A stretch of 43,041 nucleotides of DNA from a phage: the NCBI GenBank assembly GCA_026180655.1, contig GCA_026180655.1_4341.1, one strand, 5' to 3'. Each line of letters starts with the position of its first letter. Within the stretch, counting starts at the first letter, position 1. This document shows positions 7,631 to 38,457 of this stretch, piece after piece. The notes under the pieces were generated by a model. It was not told the origin of the DNA and made no database searches. It saw only the letters and a program-made list of their open reading frames with translations. The position numbers and the translations under genes are program-made.

Positions 7631-7665
7631 CTTGCACACCCCAATATAATAGCGTACTATTCACT
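7631..7665 (+). promoter_or_regulatory. Conserved promoter-like element, class A copy 1 (CTTGCACACCCC-AATATAATAG-CGTA-CTATTCA)
   Basis: TATAAT at 7645-7650 overlapping palindrome AATAG-N4-CTATT (7648-7661); near-identical copies at 16310, 27219 (rc) and 28441 (rc); gene start 27 nt downstream. Confidence 0.45.
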
Positions 7666-7691
7666 TACACCAACAATGAAGGGGTTTTAAA

Positions 7692-7883
7692 ATGTCCAGT
7701 TTACCAATTTCCTTAATCCTGTTTGCACTGCTCGTGTACTTTGCGCCTTTTTTAGTTGCCTACTTCCGCAACCATAAAGCAAAGCTGGCGATATTCATGG
7801 CTAACTTATTTCTCGGATGGGTTCTGTTGCCGTGGGTATTCATTTTAATCTGGGCTTGCAACTCGAACGTGAAAGAGAAGTAA
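7692..7883 (+). CDS. Small two-TM membrane protein, superinfection-immunity (Imm)-like
   Basis: 63 aa, two hydrophobic helices, motif FRNHKAKLAIFMANLFLGWVLLPWVFILIWA recalled as typical of Imm-type superinfection immunity proteins; GAAGGGG RBS; opposite strand to flanking tail genes. Confidence 0.45.
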   Translation: MSSLPISLILFALLVYFAPFLVAYFRNHKAKLAIFMANLFLGWVLLPWVFILIWACNSNVKEK

Positions 7884-7921
7884 GCTACTATAAGACAAAT
7901 CCTAAACACGAGGAAGTAAGC

Positions 7922-9052
7922 ATGGCCCGGAAGAAAATAACCGACGAGCAGTTACAGGAAGAATTGAACGCCGGAACAAAGATTATCGACATATCCCGTA
8001 AATACGGCATCTCAGACCGCGTAATTCGTATCCGTAAAGCGAAGCTAGCTAAAAAAGGTGTAGGCCACGGGCGCGACGTTAGCCACCTTGTCCCGGACGG
8101 CTACAAGATTAAAGGAACGTCGTCACTGGTGGACGAGTTCGGCAACACTAAACTGCAATGGGTTAAGACCGACACCGACGCCGAACGCCAGGTAGAGTTG
8201 ATGAAAGCCGTAATCGAGGGCATGAAGTCAGAGATTACGCCAGTTGCGCCTGTTAAAGCCACCCGCACCAAACGTGACGATAAACTACTCAATCTTTACA
8301 CGGTATCTGATTTACATCTCGGTATGCTGGCCTGGGCCGACGAGAGCGGCGACGACTGGGATATGAAGATTGCGGAAGACCTGTTTTCTCGATGGTTCGA
8401 CGCAGCGTTTCAGAAAGCACCGGATGCAGGAACAGGAGTCATTAACCTGCTAGGCGACTTCGCACACTTCGATAGTCTTGATGCCGTTACCCCTGAGTCG
8501 CGTCATGTGTTGGACGCAGACACGCGCTATCAGAAACTTGTACGCTACATGATTCGTATGGTCCGCCGTGTTGTAGATATGGCGCTGGTTAAACATAAAA
8601 CCGTTCGCTTGCTTATTGTGCAAGGGAACCACGACGAAAGCGGAATGATTTGGTTGGCTGAGATGTTCAGTACGCTGTATGATAACGAGCCGCGTGTGTT
8701 CGTCGATACGTCGCCGGACGTTTACAAGATGGTACGGCACGGCAAAACGACGCTGTTCTTCCATCACGGGCATAAAGCACGATTCGACGCTATCGAACCG
8801 GTTATGATTGCCAAGTTCCGCAAAGCGTTTGGTGAGAGCGTTTACAGCTACGCCCACGTAGGCCACCTGCACCATCAGAAGATTGTAGAAAGCCGTAATA
8901 TGATTGTTGAGCAACACCGCACCTTAGCGGCGAAAGACGCCTACGCCTCTCGCGGTGGATGGATGTCGGGCCGGAGTGCAAATGTAATTACTTATAGCGC
9001 CGAATATGGTGAGGTCGCACGTTTAACTATTTCACCGGAGATGCTGGGATGA
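7922..9052 (+). CDS. Calcineurin-like metallophosphoesterase with N-terminal HTH domain
   Basis: Motifs D-x-H (VSDLHLG), GD-x-x-D (LGDFAHFD), GNH[DE] (QGNHDE), HHGH and GHLHH; N-terminal 60 aa HTH-like (IIDISRKYGISDRVIRIRKAKL); GAGGAAG RBS before ATG 7922. Confidence 0.65.
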   Translation: MARKKITDEQLQEELNAGTKIIDISRKYGISDRVIRIRKAKLAKKGVGHGRDVSHLVPDGYKIKGTSSLVDEFGNTKLQWVKTDTDAERQVELMKAVIEGMKSEITPVAPVKATRTKRDDKLLNLYTVSDLHLGMLAWADESGDDWDMKIAEDLFSRWFDAAFQKAPDAGTGVINLLGDFAHFDSLDAVTPESRHVLDADTRYQKLVRYMIRMVRRVVDMALVKHKTVRLLIVQGNHDESGMIWLAEMFSTLYDNEPRVFVDTSPDVYKMVRHGKTTLFFHHGHKARFDAIEPVMIAKFRKAFGESVYSYAHVGHLHHQKIVESRNMIVEQHRTLAAKDAYASRGGWMSGRSANVITYSAEYGEVARLTISPEMLG

Positions 9053-9279
9053 CTTCAAAATACAACCGCACAATGACAAATACTCACGGCAGCACAATGG
9101 CAGTAGATGTTTATGATGTGCTCCGCGCCTTTGATATACGCGACCCAGCACTACAGCACGCATTGAAGAAGCTATTGTGCATGGGGTTGCGCGGGCACAA
9201 AGATACAGGAACCGACTTAGCGGAAGCAATTGAAAGTCTGGAGAAGTTACGGGAGTATCGAAGCAATATTGACGAGTAA
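9049..9279 (+). CDS. Hypothetical protein (76 aa), translationally coupled to the phosphoesterase gene
   Basis: ATGA start/stop overlap with 7922..9052; followed by a terminator. Confidence 0.35.
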   Translation: MTSKYNRTMTNTHGSTMAVDVYDVLRAFDIRDPALQHALKKLLCMGLRGHKDTGTDLAEAIESLEKLREYRSNIDE

Positions 9280-9280
9280 G

Positions 9281-9310
9281 AAAAAAGGCCCCGAAAGGGG
9301 CCTTAGTTTT
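9281..9310. terminator. Bidirectional rho-independent terminator
   Basis: AAGGCCCC-GAAA-GGGGCCTT hairpin flanked by A-run on one side and T-run on the other; sits between convergent genes. Confidence 0.6.
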
Positions 9311-10481
9311 ATGCGTAGGTGATGCGCTGGATAACAATAGACGACTGGTACTGGTTGCCTGTGGACTGCCCTTCTATACTTTGGGTAATTGATTCCGGGC
9401 CAGATATTTCTGGTGTAACCGCCGTGAGTTCCGCGCGTTTCAAACTGAAAGACATAGCCCCGTTTACCCCCGCCAGAATAGAGTTAATCTCTACCTGCTG
9501 TTCGTTGATAAACTTCTGAATCATCGCCATGTCATACAGCTTACCGGAGATGGAGAAGGTGTTAGCCGCGCGGCTACGCTCAACAAATGCAACGTTAGTG
9601 TTGCCGAGTTCGAACTGCGCAGACGCGCTGTTATCGTTGGTGATGGTCAGGCTGTCACAACGCAACGGCGTAGAACCGTCGAACACGGAAACGTCAACCG
9701 AGGAGAACGGCTCATCAGTGAAAGTCACCGTAGAGAAATCAGAGCCAGACGGCTGCGCGGCGAGAATCTCCTGACTGCGACCGATGAATGGGAAGCTGCC
9801 AGTTACCATCGCGTTAACAGCCTGTTCGATGGTAAAACCAGAAACTTCCACGCCTTTGGTAAGCGTGTACGCGTCAGCCCCGCCGCACTGGCCTTTGTAC
9901 CAGGTGAGAATAGAGAACGTCTTACACTGGCTACCGGTTTCCAGTTTGTCGCCGGTCTTAGCCGCAGTAGTGGCAGTCTCCGTGGTGAGGGTGTGCTGAA
10001 TGCCCGCACCGGTAACAACCGTAGCCGTTACCGCGGTGACGATAAACGGTTTTGCGTTGTCGCCCGTTAAGTCGGTAAACGCGATCAGGTCGCCTACTTC
10101 AACGCCATCAGAAATAAAGCTGCCATCAGCACGGGTGAACGTCTTGCCCGCTGGTGCGACGGTAATAGACAGGTCAGTCAAGGATACACCTGATTGCCAC
10201 GTAGAGCCTAAAGCACCTGCCAGCCAGTCATCCTGGCTTTTCGAACTAAGCTCGATGGCGTATTCTCCGCTAACCTGTTTGTTACCGGTGCGGATGGACG
10301 TAGTTTCACGGCTGCCGTCCAGTTCGTTGGAGGTCAGCGTGTCGCGGGTAATAGCAGGAACGCCACCTGTGTTACGCAACGGCGACCAGACAGGGTTGTC
10401 CGGGGTTACGCCAGGGGTAGTTTCCGCCACATAGAATTGCGCGGTATTAGCGCCCTTAAAAGGAGTTGTAGCCATATTCAC
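9309..10481 (-). CDS. Major tail protein, putative
   Basis: 390-aa Thr/Ser/Gly-rich ORF preceding the chaperone/tape measure block; strong terminator downstream. Confidence 0.5.
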   Translation of the reverse strand: MNMATTPFKGANTAQFYVAETTPGVTPDNPVWSPLRNTGGVPAITRDTLTSNELDGSRETTSIRTGNKQVSGEYAIELSSKSQDDWLAGALGSTWQSGVSLTDLSITVAPAGKTFTRADGSFISDGVEVGDLIAFTDLTGDNAKPFIVTAVTATVVTGAGIQHTLTTETATTAAKTGDKLETGSQCKTFSILTWYKGQCGGADAYTLTKGVEVSGFTIEQAVNAMVTGSFPFIGRSQEILAAQPSGSDFSTVTFTDEPFSSVDVSVFDGSTPLRCDSLTITNDNSASAQFELGNTNVAFVERSRAANTFSISGKLYDMAMIQKFINEQQVEINSILAGVNGAMSFSLKRAELTAVTPEISGPESITQSIEGQSTGNQYQSSIVIQRITYA

Positions 10482-10894
10482 AGCCTCTTGGTGAATGCAA
10501 TAAAGTTAATTGACAATGGTCGTTTGGCCCATCCGTTTTCTACAATCAGCGGCCCCAGGCTAACCGATTGAACCTCGGCGCAGATGTCGTTACGCGAAAA
10601 TGACTTACCTGCTTTAAACGCCGTGTTAAGTAAGTCTGCCATTTTATTGATTGGCGCGCTACCTTTCACAGATGCGTAGTTAATATCTACCTGATAGATG
10701 CCCGCGCGTTGTTCCGTGAAGAACAAATCAGCCTGTTCCGTATCTGCCAGCAACATGTAACTTGCCAGATACGGCGTATCGGTTGACGTCGGCGCGTCGA
10801 TGTTTTCAAGCGCGACCTTGATGCCGTTGGTGGTTCCGAAGGCTACCAGCTGCACATCGAACGCTTTGGTTAAGTCCTCAAAGTAGCCCATCAT
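10478..10894 (-). CDS. Tail completion/terminator protein, putative
   Basis: 138-aa ORF immediately upstream of the major tail gene, overlapping start/stop. Confidence 0.35.
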   Translation of the reverse strand: MMGYFEDLTKAFDVQLVAFGTTNGIKVALENIDAPTSTDTPYLASYMLLADTEQADLFFTEQRAGIYQVDINYASVKGSAPINKMADLLNTAFKAGKSFSRNDICAEVQSVSLGPLIVENGWAKRPLSINFIAFTKRL

Positions 10895-11286
10895 TTCACC
10901 TTGTTGGCTTCTTCGTTAATGAGTTGCTGGAAGCGAGACACGTTAGTCCTGACCATCCCGGCCGGAGCCTGTTGCGACCAGCCATACTCCAGCCGCTGTA
11001 TATACGGCAGGTTATTTGTCAGTGTGAACTCGTGCCAGTCTGTAGCGGTGTTTATAACCGCAGTAACACGCTGGATAGTAGCCGTTCCTTGTGGCGCGCC
11101 GTAGGTGGTAGTTTCCTGTGACGGAGTGCTGCCAGACGCAAACCAGTTATTTCTCGCGCGACCGGTATCAACTGGCGTCGCCTTTATGATAGCGGAAAAC
11201 AGCTTGATAGACACCTGACGCATCACCTTCTCAGGGTTCTTCTTCGCCTTTTCCACGAACTTAGAGACATCTAGCGCGAAACTCAT
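10891..11286 (-). CDS. Head-tail joining protein, possibly HK97 gp10-like
   Basis: 131 aa with PVDTGRARNNW segment reminiscent of gp10-family proteins; position in neck gene block. Confidence 0.4.
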   Translation of the reverse strand: MSFALDVSKFVEKAKKNPEKVMRQVSIKLFSAIIKATPVDTGRARNNWFASGSTPSQETTTYGAPQGTATIQRVTAVINTATDWHEFTLTNNLPYIQRLEYGWSQQAPAGMVRTNVSRFQQLINEEANKVK

Positions 11287-11696
11287 TTTCTCACCTGAAT
11301 AAAATATGCCACGACATCATCGTTAACCATCTTCTTCTCAATGGCCACGACAGACCATTGCTCGCCGCCAAATTGCACCTTGTCTTCCATCTTCGGAACG
11401 ACGCTGTAATCGGCCTTAACAATCATGTCACCTGCCTGAATCGTCGTACCGTTTACCAGTCCAGCGTTTACCGGAACCGGAACAGCCTTCAACGGCAACA
11501 CTTCATCCGCAGACCAGACGTACTCACCGAGAACTTCATCCCACACTTTCGAGCCGGTGTGAATCAGAGATACAGTGCTACCGAATTTGGTTAGCAGGCG
11601 TGTACCCACGCCTTGCATACGTTTACTGAAAGCGGTGCTCATCAGGCAGCCTCCAGTCTCGAAATAACCAGTAGTGCGGATGGTGCCGTCCCCCAT
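11283..11696 (-). CDS. Neck/head closure protein, putative
   Basis: 137-aa ORF in the head-to-tail joining block; coupled overlaps. Confidence 0.3.
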   Translation of the reverse strand: MGDGTIRTTGYFETGGCLMSTAFSKRMQGVGTRLLTKFGSTVSLIHTGSKVWDEVLGEYVWSADEVLPLKAVPVPVNAGLVNGTTIQAGDMIVKADYSVVPKMEDKVQFGGEQWSVVAIEKKMVNDDVVAYFIQVRK

Positions 11697-12256: not shown

Positions 12257-12258
12257 TT

Positions 12259-12771: not shown

Positions 12772-12774
12772 AAA

Positions 12775-15990: not shown

Positions 15991-16309
15991 GTTTCTCCTT
16001 TCTCGATAAGTAAAGCCCCGCCTTAAAGCGGGGCGCTAGTCCTTATCATTTAAACACAGAAACGGCGTAATCTCAGTAAACCAGTTACTTTTTACACAAG
16101 CAATAGAGTATGGCCCTTCCTAACGCGTCAGCGTAACTACACTCATGACTTACGTCCCGCTCCGTTACCTGCCCGCGCCGCGGTCGCTTGTTCATACTTC
16201 ACAAGCTCAGGTGGAGCTTAGCATATTTTCAGTGAAAAGTCAACTATTCGAATAGTTTATTCCAACATTTACAATTTAGTGGAATAACTGGAATACATAA
16301 CCAAATAGT

Positions 16310-16345
16310 TTGCGCACCCCAATATAATAGGGTACTATTCAGTTA
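16310..16345 (+). promoter_or_regulatory. Conserved promoter-like element, class A copy 2 (TTGCGCACCCC-AATATAATAG-GGTA-CTATTCA)
   Basis: TATAAT 16323-16328; palindrome AATAG-N4-CTATT at 16326-16339; gene start 28 nt downstream. Confidence 0.45.
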
Positions 16346-16372
16346 TTGAAACGAGAGATAAGGAACTTAAAG

Positions 16373-16585
16373 ATGAAAGAATTAATTATCGCGGTATTGA
16401 TGACATTGGCAGTTTCACTGGTAATCGCTGCTGTGGTACGTAGCTTAGATAAACACGGGTGCGAGAACTACGGAGATATCACAGGCCGAGAGGTAATGTA
16501 TAGTTACACAACTTGTTATGTAAAAACTGATAGGGGGTTTATCCCCCGTGAAGAACTTAATTTTAGAGCAGCGACACATGAATAA
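16373..16585 (+). CDS. Small membrane-anchored protein (moron), unknown function
   Basis: ATG 16373 with AAGGA RBS; N-terminal TM helix (LIIAVLMTLAVSLVIAAVV), 4 Cys in extracytoplasmic part; own promoter-like element and terminator; opposite strand to capsid module. Confidence 0.4.
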   Translation: MKELIIAVLMTLAVSLVIAAVVRSLDKHGCENYGDITGREVMYSYTTCYVKTDRGFIPREELNFRAATHE

Positions 16586-16587: not shown

Positions 16588-16613
16588 CTAAGGCCCCGTA
16601 AGGGGCCTTTTAT
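16588..16613. terminator. Bidirectional rho-independent terminator
   Basis: AAGGCCCC-GTAA-GGGGCCTT hairpin with flanking T/A runs. Confidence 0.55.
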
Positions 16614-17074: not shown

Positions 17075-18150
17075 TATTCCCCTTTCAGATAATCAGCAAC
17101 ACGTTTATCGAGTTCCGCCATCTCTCTAATAGTCAGCGGACTCCCGAAACCATCTACAGATATTACGCGAAACTCTCCCGGCGATATACCGCTGTTGCGG
17201 AAAATCTTACCGCGAACAGGGCCGAGCGCTTCATCCACAAACCATGCCGGTTGTTGTTTCAGGAACTCGTAATAGGTGGTGTCTGCGCTTACCTGGGTAC
17301 CGCCGTCAGCGCCCTTAGCCGCGCGTTTCTCCCCTTTATCGAGGAAGTCGAACTCTGAACTGATTACCGGGGCCGTGCACGACCGACAATTCGGATGGGC
17401 AGGGGGCATAGGCCCTTTACCAATTTCCCATGCCATTCCGTCTCTGGCTCTGCAAATCGTACTGGTACGGCTGTCCAGCGTTGACACCCATTCGTATTTC
17501 TCGATGATGTCGTCGTTCTGACGGTACGTCTCGTTGCGGGCTTCGTTGGATACATGAGACAGCGCGGTGCGGATTACAGTAGCTGCGTTACGCTCAGAGA
17601 TGTCGGCCAGGCCGCCAGCGCCAACAACATTCTTAACAATCTGCCGTGTTGTCTGGCCTTGTACGAACCCCATCTTAACGCCCGTTACAAGACGGGCGAC
17701 TTCGGTTTCACCCCAGCCATCCATCAGCTTAGTGAAATCAACTGGCTTGTCACTTAACGCCAGTGGTTGAAACACGGCGGCAGACCACACCTGCTCAGCT
17801 GTCGGGGTAACAAATTCAGCGTTGACGTTAGCCGTGAGTGTTTTCACATTCCACTCGGCTTCATACGCAGCCAGTTCCTTAAGGTCTTCTGTCAGCTTCG
17901 TTTGCCAGTCGCCCGTAAGCCCTGTCAGTGCTTCTTCCAGGTCGCGTAACAGTTTATTCAGCCGCGCGGTGCTTCGCCCGTCGTCACCGAATAACAGCAC
18001 CTGCCGTTTGATTTCGTCCCGCATTTCCTGAAGAAACGGCGCAAGGTCTTTCACCTCACCGGATGCGGTGCGTTGCAGCCATATCTGGTGGCTGATTAGG
18101 GATGTAAGTAAGCTCATAGATAAACCCTGTGGTGCTAAAGTTAATAGCAT
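17074..18150 (-). CDS. Head morphogenesis / minor capsid protein (SPP1 gp7 / Mu F-like), putative
   Basis: 358-aa ORF directly downstream of the portal gene, the conserved position of this family. Confidence 0.5.
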   Translation of the reverse strand: MLLTLAPQGLSMSLLTSLISHQIWLQRTASGEVKDLAPFLQEMRDEIKRQVLLFGDDGRSTARLNKLLRDLEEALTGLTGDWQTKLTEDLKELAAYEAEWNVKTLTANVNAEFVTPTAEQVWSAAVFQPLALSDKPVDFTKLMDGWGETEVARLVTGVKMGFVQGQTTRQIVKNVVGAGGLADISERNAATVIRTALSHVSNEARNETYRQNDDIIEKYEWVSTLDSRTSTICRARDGMAWEIGKGPMPPAHPNCRSCTAPVISSEFDFLDKGEKRAAKGADGGTQVSADTTYYEFLKQQPAWFVDEALGPVRGKIFRNSGISPGEFRVISVDGFGSPLTIREMAELDKRVADYLKGE

Positions 18151-18186
18151 ACTATAAGAAAGCCCCTTTCGGGGCTATATGAGAAC

Positions 18187-23823: not shown

Positions 23824-23905
23824 CTTCTCTACTCCGTTCTCGTTGTCGATGAAGTAAATATAGTAGGGTCGTAGGTAATAGTCAACTAGTCATTGCAGAA
23901 AATAG

Positions 23906-26761: not shown

Positions 26762-26864
26762 CTCTATCTCTCCTCTCGTTTATTCAACAGCGCCTGTTAT
26801 TGCTATAAGTCCTGTGTTACCGCGGCGGCGATACTTACGAATCACTGTTTTAAGTTCTTCGTTA

Positions 26865-27059
26865 CTACTCTGATGCCCGAAAGTGATAGGCAACTCTTCC
26901 CCCCCCCGACATCCCGAACTCAGTATCTGTTGGTTTATCCCGCCACCCCTGAATAAAACCGAAACGGTCACGGGTTATATACCGGTAGTTGTTAGGGAGT
27001 GGCAACTCCAGCCCCTCAAAATCAACGGTCACGGTGTAGCTTCTAAAATTCATAGTCAA
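26865..27059 (-). CDS. Hypothetical protein whose frame is joined to a second ORF by a G9 tract
   Basis: ATG at 27053; GGG codons span the homopolymer; downstream ORF 26780..26971 is in the frame reached by a 1-nt length change. Confidence 0.3.
   Translation of the reverse strand: MTMNFRSYTVTVDFEGLELPLPNNYRYITRDRFGFIQGWRDKPTDTEFGMSGGGRVAYHFRASE
26899..26907. repeat. Homopolymeric C9/G9 tract
   Basis: ttCCCCCCCCCgac on plus strand; lies inside overlapping ORFs 26865..27059 and 26780..26971. Confidence 0.9.
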
Positions 27060-27192
27060 TTACCCCGAACTCGTTAATGATTTGAGCCTTGTAGAAGTTG
27101 CCGTTTGAGGCCAGGTGATACGCCTGCACCATAGTCATCTCGCGATAGGTTGCTGCACTGTTTTCGAATTCCATAATCATCAAAGTAACCAT
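27043..27192 (-). CDS. Small hypothetical protein (49 aa)
   Basis: ATG 27192, 27 nt downstream of class A element copy 3; below ORF-track cutoff. Confidence 0.25.
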   Translation of the reverse strand: MVTLMIMEFENSAATYREMTMVQAYHLASNGNFYKAQIINEFGVIDYEF

Positions 27193-27218: not shown

Positions 27219-27254
27219 AATGAATAGTATCCTATTCTATCCCAGCGTGCAAGT
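27219..27254 (-). promoter_or_regulatory. Conserved promoter-like element, class A copy 3 (minus orientation)
   Basis: Reverse complement reads CTTGCACGCTGGGATAGAATAGGATACTATTCA; palindrome AATAG-TATC-CTATT at 27223-27236. Confidence 0.4.
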
Positions 27255-28422: not shown

Positions 28423-28440
28423 TCCTCTGTCTCGTTTCGA

Positions 28441-28478
28441 TAAGTGAATAGTATCCTATTATGTTGGGGTGTGCAAGA
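28441..28478 (-). promoter_or_regulatory. Conserved promoter-like element, class A copy 4 (minus orientation)
   Basis: Reverse complement reads CTTGCACACCCCAACATAATAGGATACTATTCAC; palindrome AATAG-TATC-CTATT at 28447-28460. Confidence 0.45.
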
Positions 28479-28908
28479 GAATAGTTACGTTGCCGTTGTG
28501 ATTCTTCAGGTAGGGTTGTGCCTTTATTCTTATTACTTGGTAACTAAAGGGCAGGCCTTAAGCCTGCCCAATAATCGTTACATTTTTACGGTTGCGAATC
28601 TACGGCACATTAAGAAAATCAGATACTTAAGAGATGTGCTGCCGATGAGAATAGAGCTTGCCCAGGGCAACCTGAGATACTTAGGAAGGAAAGTTACGAT
28701 AATTCTCGTGTTCAGTAAGCCTGCTGCTTAACCCTTTGCTTAACGCACGGGTTAAGCATTCTTACAAGGTGAACAAGAATCAAAGTAACTAAGATATAGA
28801 AGCACCTTAAACGAAGATTTTCATAATGTCAATAGGTGCGATTATGTTTGATTTCCCATTATTCGCAATGTATACTTGGTTTCGTTAACTGATAGTGAGG
28901 GTTTGAGA

Positions 28909-29079
28909 ATGACACAGAATGAGGTAGCTGAGCGTATCGGGGTTACTCGTCGCACGCTCAATAACTGGTTAAAGAGTGGGAAGTTCCCGGATTGTTGTAT
29001 CCGCATTATGGGTCGCCGTCAGCCGGGTACGTTTGACCCGGAGAAAGTGGAAGCGTGGATTAAGGAGAACGTGAAATGA
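28909..29079 (+). CDS. Small HTH DNA-binding protein (excisionase/AlpA-like fold), first gene of rightward operon
   Basis: ATG 28909 after TGAGGG RBS; NEVAERIGVTRRTLNNWLKSGKFP helix-turn-helix. Confidence 0.45.
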   Translation: MTQNEVAERIGVTRRTLNNWLKSGKFPDCCIRIMGRRQPGTFDPEKVEAWIKENVK

Positions 29080-31610: not shown

Positions 31611-31636
31611 TAAAAAGAAAGGGGCGTTAAGCCCCT
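31611..31636 (-). terminator. Terminator hairpin for the minus-strand XRE gene
   Basis: AGGGGC-GTTAA-GCCCCT hairpin; on minus strand followed by TTCTTTTTATC. Confidence 0.45.
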
Positions 31637-31842
31637 TCACCTAACGCCAGCCACTTGGCGTCTACTTGCAGCACTTCCGCCAGTTTAAACAGCGTCGCCG
31701 GGCGGACGTCCTGAGTTACACCCAGTGCAAGCTGGTTAATCGCACCCTGGGAAACGCCAGCCAGGACAGCCAGACGGCGCTGGGAGATGCCGAGTTCTTT
31801 ACGGCGTTGTTCTACACGGATGCCTAGTTCAGATGGTTGCAT
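31627..31842 (-). CDS. XRE-family HTH transcriptional regulator (Cro/CI-like)
   Basis: 71 aa, LGISQRRLAVLAGVSQGAINQLALG helix-turn-helix; AAGGAG RBS; only minus-strand gene inside rightward operon. Confidence 0.75.
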   Translation of the reverse strand: MQPSELGIRVEQRRKELGISQRRLAVLAGVSQGAINQLALGVTQDVRPATLFKLAEVLQVDAKWLALGEGA

Positions 31843-31862: not shown

Positions 31863-31891
31863 TTGATATGTGAATAGTACCATATTAATTA
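31863..31891. promoter_or_regulatory. Operator/promoter element with imperfect palindrome (AATAG-TACC-ATATT)
   Basis: TTGATA at 31863-31868; palindrome 31873-31886; about 30 nt upstream of the XRE gene start on the other strand. Confidence 0.35.
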
Positions 31892-31906: not shown

Positions 31907-31935
31907 TTGACATGTGAATAGCCCGCTATTATAGT
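31907..31935 (+). promoter_or_regulatory. Sigma70-type promoter, class B (TTGACA-N17-TATAGT) with operator palindrome in spacer
   Basis: TTGACA 31907-31912, TATAGT 31930-31935, palindrome AATAG-CCCG-CTATT 31917-31930; GAGGAGAG RBS and ATG 31967 downstream. Confidence 0.6.
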
Positions 31936-31966
31936 TAGCATATACCAAACGAGAGGAGAGAAACAA

Positions 31967-32479
31967 ATGTTAGACCAATTTTTAAAATTACTGGAACGTT
32001 TCGTAGTTGCACATGAACTGATTGCTGCGAACAGCGCGAAACAATCGACTGGTAAGTCGGTAGGCGAATTAACGGTTGACGTCGCGGTAACTGGGGTAGA
32101 GACAGTTAAAAAAGAACTGGCTAAAGCACTTGAAGAAGTCGAGAAAGCAAAAGAAATCCCGGTTGAAGGTGAAGACGTCGTTGACACTAAACCGGCAGAA
32201 GAAGAGAAGCCGAAACGTAAGCCGCGTAAAGCTAAAGTAGAGGAACCGACGCCAGAGCCGGAAGAAGAAGTCGATTATCAGTCTCTGCGTGACCAGATTC
32301 AGGCTATCGACGATGCAATTAACGAGGGTCCGAGCGATGCCGCGTGCGATGATTCAGATGAACTGCTGGAAGAGTTCACCGGTAGGAAGATGAAGATTGC
32401 AGCGATTAAAGACGAAGACCTGGCTGAATACCTGGAACGCCTGACAGCAATCAAGAACAAGTATTTCGAAGAAGAATAA
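31967..32479 (+). CDS. Highly acidic early protein, unknown function
   Basis: 170 aa, very Glu/Asp-rich with low-complexity PAEEEKPKRKPRKAKVEEPTPEPEEE; first ORF after strong promoter; own terminator. Confidence 0.4.
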   Translation: MLDQFLKLLERFVVAHELIAANSAKQSTGKSVGELTVDVAVTGVETVKKELAKALEEVEKAKEIPVEGEDVVDTKPAEEEKPKRKPRKAKVEEPTPEPEEEVDYQSLRDQIQAIDDAINEGPSDAACDDSDELLEEFTGRKMKIAAIKDEDLAEYLERLTAIKNKYFEEE

Positions 32480-32484
32480 CTATC

Positions 32485-32507
32485 CCGCGGCCTTCGGGCC
32501 GCTTTAA
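32485..32507 (+). terminator. Rho-independent terminator
   Basis: GCGGCC-TTCG-GGCCGC hairpin followed by TTTAACTG. Confidence 0.5.
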
Positions 32508-32522
32508 CTGAGGGTAGGAATT

Positions 32523-32795
32523 ATGATTTATCAACTCTACCGAGCCGTAGACAGGCGGGATAACACAGAGGCGCTATGGCTGTTACGTGCACCGTCCGGT
32601 GCGTATCAGATGGAAGAGATGGCGTACTTAGGAAAAGTACCACGGCCTAAAGATATAGGCCGTCATGTGTCGCAGATTAAGCGCACGACTTTTGCCAAAC
32701 CTGACTTTTATGTCTTCGAGTCGATGTATGGGTGGGCCATGCACTGCGACCATAAGACGCGACATTTAATTGACCAGTGGGAGAACAGGGTATGA
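32523..32795 (+). CDS. Hypothetical protein
   Basis: 90-aa ORF. Confidence 0.3.
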   Translation: MIYQLYRAVDRRDNTEALWLLRAPSGAYQMEEMAYLGKVPRPKDIGRHVSQIKRTTFAKPDFYVFESMYGWAMHCDHKTRHLIDQWENRV

Positions 32796-33286
32796 ATTGG
32801 CACGAACTGTTCGACTATGACCCGGATACAGGTAAGTTGTTTTGGAAGATAAGCCCTTCGGATAAGGTAAAGGTAGGCCAAGAGGCGGGGTCGAATGATG
32901 TTCACGGCTATAAACAGGTACAAGTGTTAGGTAAGGTCCATAAAGTGCACCGTGTTATATGGGAACTTTGTAATACTAATGATGTTTTAAGTAGCAGCGA
33001 CCAGATTGACCATATAGACCATGACAGAAGGGATAATCGCATATCTAATCTTCGTAAAGTTGACAGTCTAGGCAACCGGCGTAATTCTGGAATGTCGTCG
33101 CTAAATACGTCAGGTGTAACCGGAGTTTCATGGTGCCGTAGGCGCGGTAGATGGCGGGCAAGTATAAAAATAAACAAGGTATCGAAGCATTTAGGATACT
33201 TCGACAGCTTCGACGATGCGGTAAACGTTAGAAAGAAAGCAGAAGAGATTTACGGGTTCCACAAAAATCATGGGGTTAAAAGATGA
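32792..33286 (+). CDS. HNH homing endonuclease with AP2-like DNA-binding domain (copy 1)
   Basis: ATGA overlap with upstream gene; MNWHELFDYDPDTGKLFW, His/Asn-containing HNH core (HRVIW...DHIDHDRRDNRISNL), C-terminal AP2-like GVTGVSWCRRRGRWRASI; paralog at 41034. Confidence 0.6.
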   Translation: MNWHELFDYDPDTGKLFWKISPSDKVKVGQEAGSNDVHGYKQVQVLGKVHKVHRVIWELCNTNDVLSSSDQIDHIDHDRRDNRISNLRKVDSLGNRRNSGMSSLNTSGVTGVSWCRRRGRWRASIKINKVSKHLGYFDSFDDAVNVRKKAEEIYGFHKNHGVKR

Positions 33287-34566
33287 AATTAAAAGAACGC
33301 AGGGGCAATAACGATGTGCACGCGCTGTTGTCACCGTCCGGTGCTAAGAAATGGTTGGCGTGCAGTGCATCACTGGCATGTGAAAAAGATATTCCTAACA
33401 CATCCTGTAAATCCGCCGTTACAGGAACCGCATGTCACACTATAGCTGAGGTCCATCTAAACCAGTACATAAAAGGCACTGCGTTGCCATTAGAGCGTGA
33501 AGTTGGTGCTTACGTGCTGGATGATGGTAAAGGCCAGATTAAGGCGCTAATCAGCCCGATGAAAGGTGCGGTACTGATTACGGCTGACATGATTGAGCAG
33601 GTACGCAAGTACACCGATTACTGCAAAGCGATTATCGATGTAGCGACTTACGCTAAGCTAGAAATGCGCGTCAATCTTACCCAGGTGTTGCACCCAGGGT
33701 ACAAAGTACCTGTTGAGAGTGGGGAAGACGAGGAAGAAGACGAGGATGAATTAGAGACATTCGGAACCGCTGACCTCGTTGCCGTACAGGAACTGGCTAA
33801 CACAGACGAGCACATGCTCATTATCGGCGACCTGAAAACTGGGAGACATCGTGTTGAAGCGAAAGGAAACAAACAGCTTATGCTTTACGCTCTCGGTGTT
33901 TATCGTCGACTCAAGAGACGTTATAACATCACAGTTGTTCGTCTGGTAATCTTCCAGCCGTATGCCGGAGGCGCGTCGGAGTGGGACATCACGGTTGAAG
34001 GTCTGGAACTGTTCGCTAAGTTTGCACAGAAGCGTGCGCTGTTAGCCCTTGATGCGTACTTCCGCGGTAAGAAGAACCTGAAAGCGTCAGACTTCAGGCC
34101 TTCGGTAGATGGTTGTCAGTGGTGCCGGTTCTCAGAACAGTGCGCTGCACGTACAAAGACGGTTAACTCAGTACTGGCGGAAGAACTTGAGGACGACTTT
34201 GCACTGGAACTGACACCAGAGCAACTCGTAGCTGAATATGAGAAGTTGCCGTTGTTTCGCCAGCACATAGACAAGGTTGAAAAAGCGATGGCGGCTGCGC
34301 TGCATTCCGGTAAGAAAGTGCCGGGGTATAAACTGGTTGAAGGACGCCCGGGTAATCGTGCGTGGAGAGACGTGGAGAAAGTAGCAGAAATCTACGGCGA
34401 CAAGCTGACCAAAGAAGTGATCATGACCCCGACCGAAGCTGTTAAAGTGATACCGGAAGAAGAACTGAAAGACCTCATTACCCGCAAGCCTGGAGCGCCA
34501 TGTGTCGCGACGGCAGATGACAAACGGCCTGAGTGGAATCAAGTTAGTGAAGAAGATTTAGAATAA
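33283..34566 (+). CDS. PD-(D/E)XK exonuclease, DUF2800 / Cas4-like with Cys cluster
   Basis: N-terminus HALLSPSGAKKWLACSAS, nuclease motifs GTADL, IGDLKTG, QLMLYA, C-terminal CQWCRFSEQC. Confidence 0.65.
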   Translation: MKLKERRGNNDVHALLSPSGAKKWLACSASLACEKDIPNTSCKSAVTGTACHTIAEVHLNQYIKGTALPLEREVGAYVLDDGKGQIKALISPMKGAVLITADMIEQVRKYTDYCKAIIDVATYAKLEMRVNLTQVLHPGYKVPVESGEDEEEDEDELETFGTADLVAVQELANTDEHMLIIGDLKTGRHRVEAKGNKQLMLYALGVYRRLKRRYNITVVRLVIFQPYAGGASEWDITVEGLELFAKFAQKRALLALDAYFRGKKNLKASDFRPSVDGCQWCRFSEQCAARTKTVNSVLAEELEDDFALELTPEQLVAEYEKLPLFRQHIDKVEKAMAAALHSGKKVPGYKLVEGRPGNRAWRDVEKVAEIYGDKLTKEVIMTPTEAVKVIPEEELKDLITRKPGAPCVATADDKRPEWNQVSEEDLE

Positions 34567-34570
34567 AGTG

Positions 34571-34599
34571 TTGACACCTGAATAGTTAGCTATTATAGT
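34571..34599 (+). promoter_or_regulatory. Sigma70-type promoter, class B (TTGACA-N17-TATAGT) with operator palindrome
   Basis: TTGACA 34571-34576, TATAGT 34594-34599, perfect palindrome AATAG-TTAG-CTATT 34581-34594. Confidence 0.6.
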
Positions 34600-34667
34600 T
34601 CTAATCACTGGCCGGGCAGCTTCCCGGAGTAAACTTTGAAATATAAACTGAAAAGCGAGAAATCACG

Positions 34668-35297
34668 ATGGGTATTAAACTGAATCTGCGTAAAGTAAAC
34701 ACTGCATGGGTTAACGTATTCGAACGTGCTGCCGACTCTGAGGACAAGAAAACCGGTAAACTGATTAAGGGTAAATATCAGGTCACGGTTCTTATGCAAC
34801 CTGACCATCCTCAAATCGATGCGCTTTACGATACTGCGCTTGAAGTTGTAACAGAGGCAATCGGAACGGCTGCTGCCGAGAAATGGATGAAGGCCAACTA
34901 CGGGGTAGGCCACCATGCGGATAAATGCTGCGTCCGTGACCTGGCAATGCGTGACAATCCGATTGAGGATTTTGAAGAAGGTCTGTATTTCCGCGCTACT
35001 AACAACCGCCAACCGGTGATTATGACATCGGCTAAAGGTGAAAAACAAACCGAGCCTGATTTCAACATCGACGGGAAAGAAATCGAAGGAGAGCAGGTAT
35101 ATAGCGGATGTGTAGCAAACGTATCTGTAGAATTATGGTGGCACAAAGATTGGAAAAACCTGTGCGCTACCATCCTCGGTATCAAGTATATGGGTGAAGG
35201 TAAACGCTTCGGAGGCTCCAGTGTAGTAGCGAGCACCGATGACCTGGAAGACGATGAAGAAGATGAAGCACCGCGCCGCGAACGTCGCCGTCGTTAA
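34668..35297 (+). CDS. ssDNA-binding protein, DUF2815 / T7 gp2.5-like, putative
   Basis: 209 aa, acidic C-terminal tail DDLEDDEEDEA, position between Cas4-like nuclease and DNA polymerase. Confidence 0.45.
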   Translation: MGIKLNLRKVNTAWVNVFERAADSEDKKTGKLIKGKYQVTVLMQPDHPQIDALYDTALEVVTEAIGTAAAEKWMKANYGVGHHADKCCVRDLAMRDNPIEDFEEGLYFRATNNRQPVIMTSAKGEKQTEPDFNIDGKEIEGEQVYSGCVANVSVELWWHKDWKNLCATILGIKYMGEGKRFGGSSVVASTDDLEDDEEDEAPRRERRRR

Positions 35298-35316
35298 TAT
35301 CTGAATCAATTTAACT

Positions 35317-35341
35317 AAGGCCCTTCATTGGGCCTTTTTAC
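35317..35341 (+). terminator. Rho-independent terminator
   Basis: AGGCCC-TTCATT-GGGCCT hairpin followed by TTTTTA. Confidence 0.5.
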
Positions 35342-35507
35342 TAAGGGTCAAAATAATGATTTTCTGTAAGCACGTTTATCGCTATATGAAACCGCTTCCG
35401 TGGTATGCAGACGAGTACCGGGCCGGGTACAGGCATGTGTAGATTTGCCGTGATTGTATGAAAATAAGATTAAGCGAAACGAAGGCACTGGATTTAAGGA
35501 AAAAGAA

Positions 35508-37781
35508 ATGAGCTACTTATACCTTGACTTTGAAACATTCTCTGAGGCCGATTTAAATAAAGTCGGGTCCTACGCTTACGCCGAACACCCGACTACCGAA
35601 GTGCTTATCTGTACCTATGCTTTTGATGACGAGCCTGTGCAGGTGTGGGATTGCACCGACGGCAGCGACATGCCGGGCGATTTGCACCGAGCGCTACGCC
35701 GCCTGGTTAAGCCAAATAGCCGTATCAAGATGGTGTGGCACAATGGCTCAATGTTCGATAGGCTCATCATGAAGCACTGCTGGGGCTTTGACATCCCTGT
35801 AAGTAACACCATTGATACGATGATTTGGGCGTTTCGTCACGCGTTGCCGGGTTCACTCGAGGCATTGTGCGAAGTGTTGGGCGTGTCCGCGGACAATGCG
35901 AAAGACAAACGCGGCAAGGCGCTGATTAAGCGTTTCTCTAAACCTACGCCGAAGAACTACAAAATCCGCCGCTATACCTCCGAAACGCACCCGGATGAGT
36001 GGGCGCTGTTCATCAAATACGCTGTGAGCGACATCACTGCGATGCGAGAAGTATTCCATAAGCTGCCGCGGTGGGGTAACTCGGAGTTCGAGGACCGCGT
36101 ACTGGAACTGGACCAATTAATCAATGACCGAGGCTTCTTTGTTGATACGGCTCTTGCTGAGGCGGCGGTAGCAGCAGTTGAACGCCACAAGCAAGAGCTA
36201 AAAAACGAGGCCCGCGCGAAATTCGGGGGAAAACTAACCGGCAAAGATTTCCTGCCAATCCTTCGGGAACTGGCACCGGCCTACAATATTTATAATGCGC
36301 AGAAAGCAACGCTCGAAAGTTTGTTAGAGGACGACGACTTGCCCGACGATGCGCGTACAATCATTGAGATGCGCCTCGGCGCGGCCTCCACGGCGTCAAC
36401 AAAATATAAACCGCTCCTGCTAGGACGGTCCAAAGACGGACGACGTCGTGGCTGCATCCAGTATGGCGGCGCGAAGCGCACTTTACGATTTGCGGGTAAA
36501 GGGTTTCAGCCACAGAACCTGTCGCGCGGGTATTACCACGATGACCCGACTAACGAGGAAAAGAAACTTGTACGCCAGCCGTGGGAGTCCGACGAAGACT
36601 GGAACCGCAGGCTTAACCCGCTATCGTTTGGTATCAATTTGCTTTTAAAGGGTCGGGCGCATCGTCGTTTCGATGTATCTAAACTAACGGCCTCGACCGT
36701 CCGCAGTTGCATCATCCCGGAAAAAGGCAATAAGTTGCTCGTTGCCGACTACTCAAACGTGGAAGGACGTGGGTTAGCCTGGACGGCGGGGGAGACGTCA
36801 GCCCTTGAGACGTTCCGCGCGGGGGTTGATATCTATTGTGCCACAGCTGGTAAGATGTTTGGCATGGACCCCATAGAACTGAAAGCCACCCGTAAAGACC
36901 TACGACAGGTCGGGAAATGTTGCGAGCTTGGCCTCGGCTACGAGGGGGGCGTAGGGGCTTTTATGACTATGGCTAAAACTTACGGGCTGGACCTCTTTAA
37001 AATGACGGAGACAATGCGAGGGACCTTTCCCGACCACATATGGGCCGCCACTGCCCGAGGTTATGAATGGGCGCGGATTCAGGAGGCTAAGCGACCCCCA
37101 AAACCAGGTAAAAAGGACGAACGGGCCTCTTACGTGTTGCCTAAGGAAGTGTGGCGCACCTGCGATGCTATCAAGCGCATGTGGCGGGAAGCCCACCCAG
37201 AAACAGTGAAATTCTGGAACGACCTTAAGGATTCGGTGATCGCCGCAATCAGAAATCCGGGACGAGAGTTTTGGGCGGGGGCCAGAGTCCGCCTTAACGG
37301 CGACAGAGCTATTCGCATCTGGCGTACTAAAGAGAAAGACAGACAGGGTAACTTTGTGCCTGGTTGGTGGTTGTGCGTGGAGCTGCCGTCGGGGCGCATC
37401 ATGTCCTACCCTGGTATAGGCTTAAGCGTCACTAAAGAGACTGACGAGGATGGGCGCGTAACAACTAACGTTCGCATTAAGTACCAGGGCGAAAATCAGA
37501 CCACCCGCCAGTGGACAACTTTGTATACCCACGGCGGAAAATTGTGTGAAAACATCATCCAGGCATTGTGCCGTGATTTACTGGTTAACGGACTCCTGAC
37601 GGTGGAAGCGGCGGGCTACCCAATTGTACTTCATGTGCATGACGAATGTGTCGCCGAAACACCAGACACACCGGAGTACACGGTTAAAGAGATGGGCGAC
37701 CTGCTATGCTCATTACCTGAATGGGCTGAAGGATTCCCACTAACATGGGCCGGGGAAGAGGTGTACCGTTATGTTAAGTAA
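35508..37781 (+). CDS. DNA polymerase, family A, with 3'-5' exonuclease domain
   Basis: ATG 35508 after AAGGAAAAAG RBS; exo motifs DFETFS, WHNGSMFD, YAVSD; pol motif A DYSNVEGR, motif B RKDLRQVGKCCELGLGYEGG, motif C HVHDE. Confidence 0.85.
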   Translation: MSYLYLDFETFSEADLNKVGSYAYAEHPTTEVLICTYAFDDEPVQVWDCTDGSDMPGDLHRALRRLVKPNSRIKMVWHNGSMFDRLIMKHCWGFDIPVSNTIDTMIWAFRHALPGSLEALCEVLGVSADNAKDKRGKALIKRFSKPTPKNYKIRRYTSETHPDEWALFIKYAVSDITAMREVFHKLPRWGNSEFEDRVLELDQLINDRGFFVDTALAEAAVAAVERHKQELKNEARAKFGGKLTGKDFLPILRELAPAYNIYNAQKATLESLLEDDDLPDDARTIIEMRLGAASTASTKYKPLLLGRSKDGRRRGCIQYGGAKRTLRFAGKGFQPQNLSRGYYHDDPTNEEKKLVRQPWESDEDWNRRLNPLSFGINLLLKGRAHRRFDVSKLTASTVRSCIIPEKGNKLLVADYSNVEGRGLAWTAGETSALETFRAGVDIYCATAGKMFGMDPIELKATRKDLRQVGKCCELGLGYEGGVGAFMTMAKTYGLDLFKMTETMRGTFPDHIWAATARGYEWARIQEAKRPPKPGKKDERASYVLPKEVWRTCDAIKRMWREAHPETVKFWNDLKDSVIAAIRNPGREFWAGARVRLNGDRAIRIWRTKEKDRQGNFVPGWWLCVELPSGRIMSYPGIGLSVTKETDEDGRVTTNVRIKYQGENQTTRQWTTLYTHGGKLCENIIQALCRDLLVNGLLTVEAAGYPIVLHVHDECVAETPDTPEYTVKEMGDLLCSLPEWAEGFPLTWAGEEVYRYVK

Positions 37782-37905
37782 ACCGATTGTTACGGCACTG
37801 GCGGGATTCGCAACCGGTGTCTACTGTCACGGGGGACAGTACGGCATGATGGTCGCCGTATTGTGTATGTTAGTCGCAATTTATCTGTGGGTGCTGGAAT
37901 GAAAA
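37771..37905 (+). CDS. Small hydrophobic peptide (44 aa)
   Basis: ATG 37771 overlapping polymerase 3' end; two hydrophobic segments; below ORF-track cutoff. Confidence 0.2.
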
Positions 37906-37984
37906 TTTACTGGTTCTATGAAGAAGACTGCCGAATCTGTCCGCGCTGCGGAATTGAGCATACGAAACGTGAGGGGTGTGTATT

Positions 37985-38176
37985 ATGAAAGAAGAATGTT
38001 TCAGCAACACCAAAGCATTAGTAGATATGCCTGAGTGGGAGTTCATCACGGTAATGGGAGATGGGTTCTTTAGTGATGCCTGCGCGGGGTGCACGCATAA
38101 AGGCGTTTACTATTCAGAACACGACATCTATCAAGCGTACTTCCTGCGCAACCCGGATGCGGAGCCTTTGCTGTGA
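37985..38176 (+). CDS. Hypothetical protein
   Basis: 63-aa ORF, MKEECFSNTKALVDMPEWEF... Confidence 0.3.
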   Translation: MKEECFSNTKALVDMPEWEFITVMGDGFFSDACAGCTHKGVYYSEHDIYQAYFLRNPDAEPLL

Positions 38177-38457
38177 CCCCGGAAGGCAAGATTCAGAAAT
38201 ACGCAAAAGACCGATTCGAGGCCATTGGTGGCCTCGTTCGTAAACTTTCCTACGAAGGACGTTCCGGTGCTCCTGACCTGCTGGTAATTCTCCCCGGCGG
38301 CATCGTCTGGTTTGTCGAGGTGAAGAAAGACGAAAACACGAAGCCAGACCCACACCAGCTACGTGAGCATGAGCGTATGCGCAAACGTGGCGCGAATGTT
38401 TTTGTCGTCGGGTCGTTCAAACAGGTTGACGATCTAATAGCGAACTATTATAGTTAG
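38173..38457 (+). CDS. VRR-NUC domain nuclease
   Basis: GTG start overlapping upstream stop; GAPDLLVILPGGIVWFVEVKKDENTKPDPHQ matches the VRR-NUC PD-(D/E)XK core. Confidence 0.55.
   Translation: MTPEGKIQKYAKDRFEAIGGLVRKLSYEGRSGAPDLLVILPGGIVWFVEVKKDENTKPDPHQLREHERMRKRGANVFVVGSFKQVDDLIANYYS
38426..38454 (+). promoter_or_regulatory. Sigma70-type promoter, class B (TTGACG-N17-TATAGT) with operator palindrome
   Basis: TTGACG 38426-38431, TATAGT 38449-38454, palindrome AATAG-CGAA-CTATT 38436-38449; lies within 3' end of VRR-NUC gene. Confidence 0.5.

Follow-up and report, generated by a model that had tools for sequence, protein, structure and literature searches.

Gene layout of the window and its two candidate regulators

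The DNA analyzed here, contig GCA_026180655.1_4341.1 (referred to as the window), is 43,041 bp long with 51% G+C and is ~90% identical to the Kagunavirus genomes K1ind1, phiWAO78-1, and ZCEC5 (subfamily Guernseyvirinae). From its sequence, it is the genome of a virulent E. coli phage of the genus Kagunavirus. Our subject is a 14-bp palindrome, AATAG-N4-CTATT, that recurs along this genome, together with the promoters that contain it and the phage proteins that may bind it.

We derived the gene layout from Pfam scans and from the annotation of relatives. Structural and lysis genes form a leftward block, and a rightward replication block encodes a DUF2800 nuclease, a single-stranded DNA (ssDNA)-binding protein, a family-A DNA polymerase, a C5 methylase, and an SNF2 helicase. 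A separate helicase-primase operon is headed by an HTH_17 gene, and two small plus-strand cassettes interrupt the structural genes. Only two DNA-binding regulators are recognizable: a 71-amino-acid (aa) HTH_3/XRE protein (31627-31842, minus strand; Pfam HTH_3, E = 1.2e-12), hereafter XRE, and a 56-aa Xis/MerR-like HTH_17 protein encoded by the first gene of the helicase-primase operon (28909-29079, plus strand; Pfam HTH_17, E = 3.3e-7). The Pfam scans detected neither an RNA polymerase nor a sigma domain in the open reading frames (ORFs) covered, which include nearly all of those of at least 300 aa, and none is present in the annotations of relatives. Two large ORFs (855 and 426 aa) have no Pfam match of any kind; in K1ind1, the corresponding ORFs carry the annotations tail protein and tailspike. 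The scanned ORFs showed no lysogeny functions.

AATAG-N4-CTATT is the dominant palindrome of the genome

The palindrome occurs in perfect form seven times, at 7648, 16326, 27223, 28447, 31917, 34581, and 38436, where ~0.03 copies are expected and none of 100 shuffled sequences reaches seven. When one mismatch is allowed, the window contains 12 sites against 1.07 expected, while sites with exactly two mismatches are no commoner than expected by chance (10 found, 15 expected). When every 5-mer palindrome with a spacer of 0-12 nt is enumerated without bias, AATAG-N4-CTATT ranks first in the window, in K1ind1, in phage Jersey, and in all 37 Kagunavirus loci from IMG/VR. In most of 13 Jerseyvirus sequences it ranks first, or joint first with its extended form TAATA-N6-TATTA. 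The search over the window and related genomes that the first-pass annotation had proposed as a check on its own observation thus returns this motif as the top-ranked palindrome in the window, in the Kagunavirus loci, and in most Jerseyvirus sequences.

Eleven of the 12 sites are intergenic, and intergenic DNA makes up 9.4% of the window by our gene map (P = 6e-11). The 38436 copy coincides with the last codons of a weak VRR-NUC ORF (38173-38457), as it does in Jersey. The distance from the end of the palindrome to the start codon is 30-38 nt at seven sites and 73 nt at 34581. The first-pass annotation had listed the seven perfect copies and a one-mismatch copy at 31873 (AATAGTACCATATT), all described as intergenic or at gene ends. 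Our motif search recovered every one of them, with 38436 as the gene-end case, and adds three one-mismatch intergenic copies at 23877, 16235, and 18143. The palindrome observation is therefore confirmed and extended.

The palindrome is built into σ70-type promoters in three arrangements

To describe the promoter context, we scored a site as σ70-type if it showed TTGnnn and TAnnnT 16-18 bp apart with a gene in the same orientation downstream. All seven perfect copies lie inside such a promoter, each with a 17-bp spacer and oriented toward its downstream gene, so that the promoter embedding that had been read from a first inspection extends to every perfect copy. We used this register analysis because a generic σ70 scan of the window gave hits no commoner than in shuffled sequences and missed the TTGCAC -35 hexamers.

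In the first arrangement (class B), the promoter reads TTGAC(A/G)-N17-TATAGT, and the palindrome begins 4 nt past the -35 hexamer and ends on the first T of the -10 hexamer. The geometry proposed for these sites, a 17-bp spacer filled by the palindrome between a -35 hexamer at 31907, 34571, or 38426 and TATAGT, was exactly reproduced. The class B copies are all on the plus strand. The copy at 31917-31930 (TTGACA at 31907, TATAGT at 31930) would serve 31967-34566, which encodes a 170-aa and a 90-aa ORF, an HNH protein, and the DUF2800 nuclease. The copy at 34581-34594 (TTGACA at 34571, TATAGT at 34594) would serve the genes for the ssDNA-binding protein and DNA polymerase (34668-37781), and that at 38436-38449 (TTGACG at 38426, TATAGT at 38449) would serve 38488-41531, encoding a 63-aa ORF, the C5 methylase, the SNF2 helicase, and an HNH protein.

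In the second arrangement (class A), the promoter reads TTGC(A/G)C-N17-TACTAT; the palindrome begins 10 nt past the -35 hexamer, and its right half (TA+CTAT) is the probable -10 hexamer itself. On the plus strand, the copy at 7648-7661 (TTGCAC at 7632, TACTAT at 7655) would drive the genes for an Imm-like protein, a metallophosphatase, and a 76-aa ORF (7692-9279), and the copy at 16326-16339 (TTGCGC at 16310, TACTAT at 16333) would drive a 70-aa ORF (16373-16585). On the minus strand, the copy at 27223-27236 (TTGCAC at 27252, TACTAT at 27229) precedes a DUF7170 gene (27192-27043) and the downstream leftward block of small genes and lysis genes, and the copy at 28447-28460 (TTGCAC at 28476, TACTAT at 28453) precedes four small genes (28413-27555, including DUF551).

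Class A is where the first description needs revision. It had the palindrome overlapping a TATAAT hexamer and preceded by a conserved CTTGCACACCCC block. A TTGCAC hexamer (TTGCGC at 16310) indeed lies ahead of all four copies; its ACCCC extension is present at only three of them and TATAAT at only two (7648 and 16326), with CATAAT at 28447 and no counterpart at 27223. We rejected TATAAT as the class A -10 hexamer: it is 7 bp from TTGCAC, has no -35 hexamer at 17 bp, is missing at 27223, and lacks conservation among relatives. Judged from the sequence, TACTAT within the palindrome (TTGCAC-N17-TACTAT) most likely serves as the -10 hexamer. Similarly, the CTTGCACACCCC block is not an element of its own; it consists of the -35 hexamer plus spacer common to three paralogous copies.

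The XRE gene has a variant of the class A arrangement. On the minus strand at 31873-31886, a palindrome with an imperfect left half (AATATGGTACTATT) lies over the -10 hexamer TACTAT of the XRE promoter, whose -35 hexamer (CTTTTC) is poor; we propose it as an autoregulatory site. In a third arrangement (class C), N4 is TTGA and a one-mismatch palindrome contains the -35 hexamer TTGACT. The clear example is the minus-strand copy at 23877-23890 (ACTAGTTGACTATT), which contains the -35 of TTGACT(23885)-N17-TATATT(23862), lies past a terminator, and heads toward small genes and the terminase/structural block; its Jersey homologue is an annotated promoter. Less convincing is the minus-strand copy at 16235-16248 (AATAGTTGACTTTT), which contains TTGACT(16243)-N17-TAAGCT and is a weaker candidate with a long leader to 15990. 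A further one-mismatch copy (18143-18156, minus strand; TATAGTATGCTATT) lies between the portal and head-morphogenesis genes, directly past a terminator hairpin, and has no convincing -35 hexamer.

With the transcription start placed 7 nt after the -10 hexamer, the palindromes are centered at about -33.5 in class C, -18.5 in class B, and -12.5 in class A and the XRE promoter, so that the putative operators span ~-40 to -6 of TTGnnn-N17-TAnnnT promoters, relative to these predicted starts, which fall near 7667, 16345, 27217, 28441, 31867, 31942, 34606, 38461, and 23850. At eight of 10 sites, a leader of 25-28 nt leads to a ribosome-binding site and start codon. The downstream ORFs are plausible; for example, the 49-aa ORF at 27192 belongs to the DUF7170 family (E = 2.7e-18). 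The over-long spacers (19-20 bp) typical of MerR-type promoters, in which an activator bound to a spacer dyad has to distort the DNA, were not seen at these sites, where spacers are 17 bp and occasionally 18 bp. A role for the palindromes in RNA is unlikely since they lie upstream of the predicted starts; an Rfam scan of the window gave no match.

The leaders show recurring blocks of their own. One class A and one class B promoter have ACACCAACAAT in common (7667-7680 and 38461-38475), and CGAAACGAGAG, or AAACGAGAGGAGAG, appears in four leaders (including 16350-16365, 28425-28440, and 31950-31962); by sequence, promoters and leaders look modular. The leader of the ssDNA-binding protein/DNA polymerase operon is unusually long (62 nt; 34606-34667), and it contains a GC-rich hairpin, GGCCGGGCAGCTTCCCGG, that is conserved in Jersey and could be a translational or RNA-stability element.

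The same motif has been published under a different label. PHIRE picks it as the dominant repeated 20-mer and, in Kagunavirus fBC-Eco01, reports seven “phage RNAP [RNA polymerase] promoters,” PP1-PP7 (TGAATAGTAYCCTATTAT..), with the consensus tgAATAGTa-ccTATTat-T (PMC9825357). These are the same motif and correspond to copies in the window. Seven PHIRE promoters were likewise reported for phage Golestan (PMC7203180). Both papers assign the motif to a phage RNA polymerase and do not mention its dyad symmetry, its σ70 embedding, or a link to a helix-turn-helix (HTH) protein. The label fails because no RNA polymerase domain was found in the scanned ORFs; the gene content described above refutes it, and a symmetric dyad placed at varying register within canonical -35/N17/-10 promoters speaks against it as well. 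We give this reading almost no credence.

The half-sites are conserved while their register changes

We aligned orthologous promoters from 59 XRE-containing loci with 10-kb flanks from IMG/VR and from several complete genomes. In class B, the entropy is 0.23 bit for the -35 hexamer, 0.88 for the 4-nt spacer to the palindrome, 0.12 for the left half, 1.02 for N4, 0.08 for the right half, and 0.14 for the rest of the -10 hexamer. In class A, the values are 0.23 for the -35 hexamer, 0.41 for the 10-nt spacer to the palindrome, 0.03 for the left half, 0.96 for the 2-nt variable core, and 0.02 for the right half, with 0.04 for the TA of the -10 hexamer inside the palindrome. The left half-site falls within the spacer, where σ70 polymerase makes no base-specific readout, and is nevertheless as strongly conserved as the -10 hexamer. 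The same contrast is seen at 31917, where the half-sites are conserved over 50 orthologous sequences and N4 varies. Because the half-sites are almost invariant and the core and neighboring spacer are variable, the pattern points to a sequence-specific dimeric binder rather than to RNA polymerase.

The placement of the dyad points the same way. A set of 39 Kagunavirus sequences contains 174 perfect copies, of which 167 belong to TTGnnn-N16-18-TAnnnT promoters, with a gap of 4/5 or 10 nt to the -35 hexamer. A further 27 one-mismatch copies in these sequences are class C and hold a -35-like TTG hexamer, in 26 cases TTGACT. In Jerseyvirus, gaps of 7 and 11 nt occur in addition. Since the dyad keeps its sequence while sliding relative to the -35 and -10 hexamers, a separate symmetric DNA-binding protein is indicated; neither an element recognized by polymerase nor plain duplication of cassettes would give this pattern. 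That there are several registers speaks for an element that does not depend on contacts with polymerase. The imperfect copies are also maintained: the imperfect left half at 31873 is conserved in nearly all Kagunavirus orthologs, and the 23877 site is kept in its imperfect form in 41 sequences. The earlier proposal of one sequence-specific, dyad-symmetric binder therefore gains support from invariant half-sites, a variable core and spacer, and a register that differs by class.

These data also bear on whether a dedicated binder is needed at all. The palindrome might instead be a by-product of promoter sequence, with -10-like hexamers on both strands and an ancestral cassette spread by recombination. 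The right half-site does supply or abut the -10 hexamer (TACTAT, or the T of TATAGT), and three class A copies are alike over more than 40 bp including the leader, which makes them paralogous. However, a by-product would not explain why AATAG in the spacer is as invariant as the -10 hexamer while the adjoining spacer and N4 vary, nor why the palindrome keeps its identity at several registers. In addition, the class B promoters have little in common besides the -35 hexamer, the palindrome, and the -10 hexamer, and the genus Cornellvirus (below) has altered both half-sites symmetrically. We therefore regard this explanation as very improbable.

The motif follows the phage lineage and not the host: E. 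coli-infecting Kagunavirus and Salmonella-infecting Jerseyvirus have the same palindrome. Salmonella-infecting Cornellvirus has no AATAG-N4-CTATT site with up to one mismatch and instead has TATTA-N6-TAATA at the equivalent promoters (for example, TTGCAA-N17-TAATAT), with eight and six sites against ~1-1.5 expected. Relative to the dyad of Kagunavirus and Jerseyvirus, this is a symmetric AATA to ATTA change. A transcription factor or nucleoid protein of E. coli or Salmonella, exploited by the phage, could in principle bind the palindrome, given that the promoters are of host type and that the sequence excludes no host protein. Against this, the motif tracks the phage genus, is common to E. coli and Salmonella phages, and differs between two genera that both infect Salmonella; furthermore, we know of no enterobacterial factor with an AATAG-N4-CTATT consensus. 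A host binder thus seems highly improbable. Altogether, these results suggest that the palindrome is very likely an operator for a dimeric phage regulator, as far as sequence comparison can tell.

The Cornellvirus dyads lie at 8263, 14981, and 38486 in Shemara (L003) and at 7554, 14749, and 37322 in VSiA (L004), with the right half forming the -10 hexamer TAATAT. Both genomes lack HTH_17, and their XRE gene points in the same direction as the helicase-primase gene.

Two phage proteins are candidates for the binder

The first-pass annotation had named XRE as the plausible regulator, and it remains the best candidate by family (HTH_3), by sequence and fold, and by gene position; that part stands, with the qualification that HTH_17 tracks the palindrome at least as well. 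The best sequence match of XRE in the PDB is 434 Cro, itself 71 aa long (E = 1.8e-6, residues 6-68), followed by the 434 repressor and P22 C2. The AlphaFold2 model of XRE has five helices (pLDDT 85), with 2cro as top fold match and the 3cro Cro/OR1 complex also listed; by Pfam and by this model, XRE thus has the HTH_3 five-helix DNA-binding domain of the 434 Cro/cI-type system. The ~14-18-bp dyad operator of that system, with conserved outer half-sites and a variable center, is matched by half-sites of 0.02-0.12 bit around a center of ~1 bit. The XRE gene lies in a divergent control region in which a perfect operator is 44 bp from the imperfect copy over XRE's own -10 hexamer. Distant XRE homologs (~37% identity; loci L060 and L061) adjoin 14-bp 5-N4-5 palindromes of their own that overlap TTGACA promoters, at loci without HTH_17; likewise, Cornellvirus keeps XRE and promoter palindromes and lacks HTH_17.

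The most serious competitor is that the operator is real and is bound by two copies of HTH_17, while XRE regulates something else or only its own region. By tblastn, K1ind1 has an identical HTH_17 (100%), and Jerseyvirus and locus L041 have versions with 87.5% and 75% identity; all three have AATAG-N4-CTATT. HTH_17 is confined to Kagunavirus and Jerseyvirus (443 phage records). Its weak fold matches include the DNA-binding domain of RacA, a protein that binds 14-bp inverted repeats. On the other hand, these matches are weak throughout (E > 0.03) and consist mostly of the winged helices of Xis and BldC, which bind direct repeats head-to-tail, and no dimerization module is evident. The promoter region of HTH_17 itself (TTGATT at 28848, N17, TATACT) contains no AATAG palindrome, and the gene, heading the helicase-primase operon downstream of a 450-bp non-coding region with repeats, is placed as would suit a role in origin binding or replication. 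Moreover, Cornellvirus, L060, and L061 combine promoter-embedded 14-16-bp dyads and an XRE homolog with no HTH_17, so that a second, unrelated binder would be needed there. We found no informative phage with HTH_17 and without XRE, given the confinement of HTH_17 to the two genera. On balance, we consider HTH_17 a real rival to XRE, if an unlikely binder of the palindrome.

Several observations weigh against XRE. Its Kagunavirus and Jerseyvirus versions are only ~50% identical and differ at four of eight recognition-helix positions (SQGAINQL versus SQSLITHL) despite having the same operator, a mismatch that favors HTH_17. HTH_17 is missing from complete Cornellvirus genomes, where the palindrome differs, and its distribution therefore fits no worse than that of XRE. 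In Cornellvirus, the operators adjoining the XRE gene are imperfect, and the class A copies are partly paralogous promoter cassettes and so not fully independent. Finally, our literature search found no binding, footprint, or transcription-start data for any Guernseyvirinae phage. A comparison of recognition helices with operators over the three genera also gave no clean correspondence. Taking both sides together, we estimate a probability of roughly 60% that the palindrome is the operator of a dimeric phage repressor that is, most probably, the 434-Cro-like XRE protein.

We note that the XRE gene of Salmonella phage GE_vB_HIL (L064; 39240-39460) is split by a frameshift in an UNVERIFIED GenBank record in which all palindromes are intact. 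The frameshift is probably a sequencing error, and we set this “truncated” XRE aside as uninformative on the role of the protein. Among 185,579 bacterial species genomes, a search for close XRE relatives or prophages returned only generic HTH_3 matches of at most 48% identity.

Two features next to the HTH_17 gene deserve mention. Its candidate promoter, shared with helicase-primase (28848-28876; TTGATT-N17-TATACT), carries a different spacer dyad, CATTATTCGCAATG (CATT-N6-AATG), which could be chance or a second operator type. Upstream, the 450-bp non-coding region (28461-28908) that separates this operon from the leftward class A promoter has a strong hairpin at 28549-28569, a perfect inverted repeat (10 bp, 28725-28758), and AGATACTTA in direct repeats; the repeats are short and weak. 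The region may be a replication origin or a non-coding RNA, for which Rfam finds no match.

A proposed mechanism of graded promoter occlusion

In the model that we propose, the phage, having no RNA polymerase of its own, would start all of its transcription units at host σ70-type promoters. The operator would be built into the promoter core at three positions: over the -35 hexamer (class C), in the spacer (class B), and over the -10 hexamer (class A and the XRE promoter). A bound dimer would then exclude RNA polymerase, so that occlusion amounts to repression. Since the operators overlap the -35 hexamer, the spacer, or the -10 hexamer at the optimal 17-bp spacing, occlusion and repression fit these sites, whereas MerR-like or class I/II activation does not.

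The distribution of perfect and imperfect copies suggests an order of events. The three replication operons, the two leftward small-gene operons, and both plus-strand cassettes each have a perfect operator at their head, while copies that are imperfect, and conserved as imperfect, occur at the promoter of the XRE gene and at the class C promoters directed toward the terminase and structural genes. Early on, XRE would come from its own weak promoter; with rising XRE levels, the perfect operators would be occupied and the replication operons (class B) and the leftward small-gene operons and moron cassettes (class A) thereby turned down, and the imperfect copies would fill only at higher XRE concentration. 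The outcome would be negative autoregulation and a graded, Cro-like temporal shut-down. We infer here that XRE binds the motif, that binding represses, and that the sites fill in this order.

RNA sequencing (RNA-seq) of Kagunavirus K1B4 offers a partial comparison. An HTH-domain gene is among only four genes that peak in the first 30 min (PMC12645636), which lends weak support to the model. Conversely, the DNA polymerase and methylase genes, which lie behind class B promoters, are called “late” in that study (PMC12645636), a misfit with simple early shut-off that counts against our interpretation. The infection was unsynchronized and phage reads made up at most 8.9% of the total (PMC12645636). 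For these reasons, the K1B4 data neither confirm nor refute the model.

A bolder, “Cro-only” version would make one 71-aa 434-Cro-like protein the master timer of the whole transcription program in a strictly virulent subfamily, the Guernseyvirinae. It would act through graded operators at three positions in essentially every host-type promoter (perfect ones at early, replication, and moron promoters, and ones conserved as imperfect at its own promoter and at those leading to late genes), with a specificity switched symmetrically between genera. We hold this version only tentatively and think that it probably claims too much.

Relation to known systems

In phage 434, the operators have the form ACAA-N6-TTGT, a 14-bp dyad whose outer bases are conserved and whose center varies. 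The 434 Cro protein and the N-terminal domain of 434 cI belong to the same family as XRE, and 434 Cro, of the same length, is its closest solved relative by sequence and predicted fold. The putative operators described here resemble 434 OR/OL in being 14-bp dyads with 4-5 conserved outer bp and a variable center; by sequence, they also overlap predicted σ70 promoter cores, where binding would repress. In function, the system would thus work as 434 Cro does on its operators. They differ in half-site (AATAG here, ACAA in 434) and in organization, with single operators dispersed over at least eight to 10 promoters in place of tripartite OR/OL clusters. Furthermore, 434 has a cI partner and lysogeny, whereas this virulent lineage has no cI or lysogeny module, and 434 cro is the first gene of PR, whereas the XRE gene is divergent from the replication operon, in the position of cI. 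The window thus does not contain a lambdoid immunity region: only two HTH proteins were found in the scanned ORFs, neither with a C-terminal domain, the operators are single and dispersed, and prophage relatives were not found in the bacterial genomes searched.

Dispersed operators are familiar from the C1 repressor of P1 and from the gp71 “stoperators” of mycobacteriophage L5, in which one phage repressor acts at many short sites scattered genome-wide at or near the starts of transcription units. The likeness is in one small phage repressor with many scattered copies of one short site. However, the P1 and L5 sites are asymmetric and belong to repressors that maintain the prophage of temperate phages, while the sites here are perfect dyads within the promoter cores of a virulent phage, which sets them apart from the asymmetric class. 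The controller proteins of restriction-modification systems, C.AhdI and C.BclI, are also small XRE-type dimers that act on promoter dyads to time expression, and they are among the structural neighbors of the XRE model. Their C-boxes are paired operators at a single promoter that both activate and repress, as opposed to single 14-bp sites at many promoters, all in positions predicted to occlude polymerase. The switch proposed here, a Cro-type repressor with dyad operators inside promoters, is an ordinary and familiar type and opens no new field.

Within the Guernseyvirinae literature, we came across no account that treats the dyad as an operator, places it within σ70 promoters, or connects it with the HTH protein. 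A search for work on operators, Cro, or transcription starts in this subfamily gave only the PHIRE reports, one coarse RNA-seq study, and a Jerseyvirus genome paper in which Cro and CI are said to be absent (PMC5217580).

Other features of the window

The plus-strand cassette at 7692-9279, which lies within the minus-strand tail-gene block, holds a gene for a superinfection-immunity protein like T4 Imm (E = 3.9e-13), one for a metallophosphatase-like protein, and a 76-aa ORF; it has a class A promoter at its start and a bidirectional terminator at its end. This terminator belongs to a family of near-identical hairpins, AAGGCCCC-N4-GGGGCCTT, found at 9285-9304, 16590-16609, and 41670-41689, with a variant at 35317-35336. 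The hairpin serves as a bidirectional terminator at the 3' ends of plus-strand cassettes that meet minus-strand genes, ranks second among the over-represented palindrome families of the window, and recurs in Jersey and Cornellvirus. The replication block contains two HNH_3 homing-type endonuclease genes (32777-33286 and 41034-41531), the first with a weak AP2-like DNA-binding domain. A run of nine C residues at 26899-26907 coincides with a frame change of the overlapping minus-strand ORFs 26865-27059 and 26780-26971 and may be a sequencing error or a slippage-prone tract.

Implications for Guernseyvirinae phages

Phages of the genera Kagunavirus and Jerseyvirus rank among those most frequently isolated and put forward as therapeutics against E. 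coli and Salmonella. If our interpretation is true, it would correct a recurring annotation error (“phage RNAP promoters,” “Cro absent”) and would provide a complete, testable transcription map of ~10 promoters with predicted start sites and one regulator. It would also yield a repressor/operator pair that is compact and orthogonal and for which Cornellvirus supplies a natural variant in specificity. For phage safety screening, it would mean that a “repressor” gene in such genomes need not indicate a temperate lifestyle. Were the “Cro-only” circuit true, XRE, acting in trans, might also silence superinfecting relatives.

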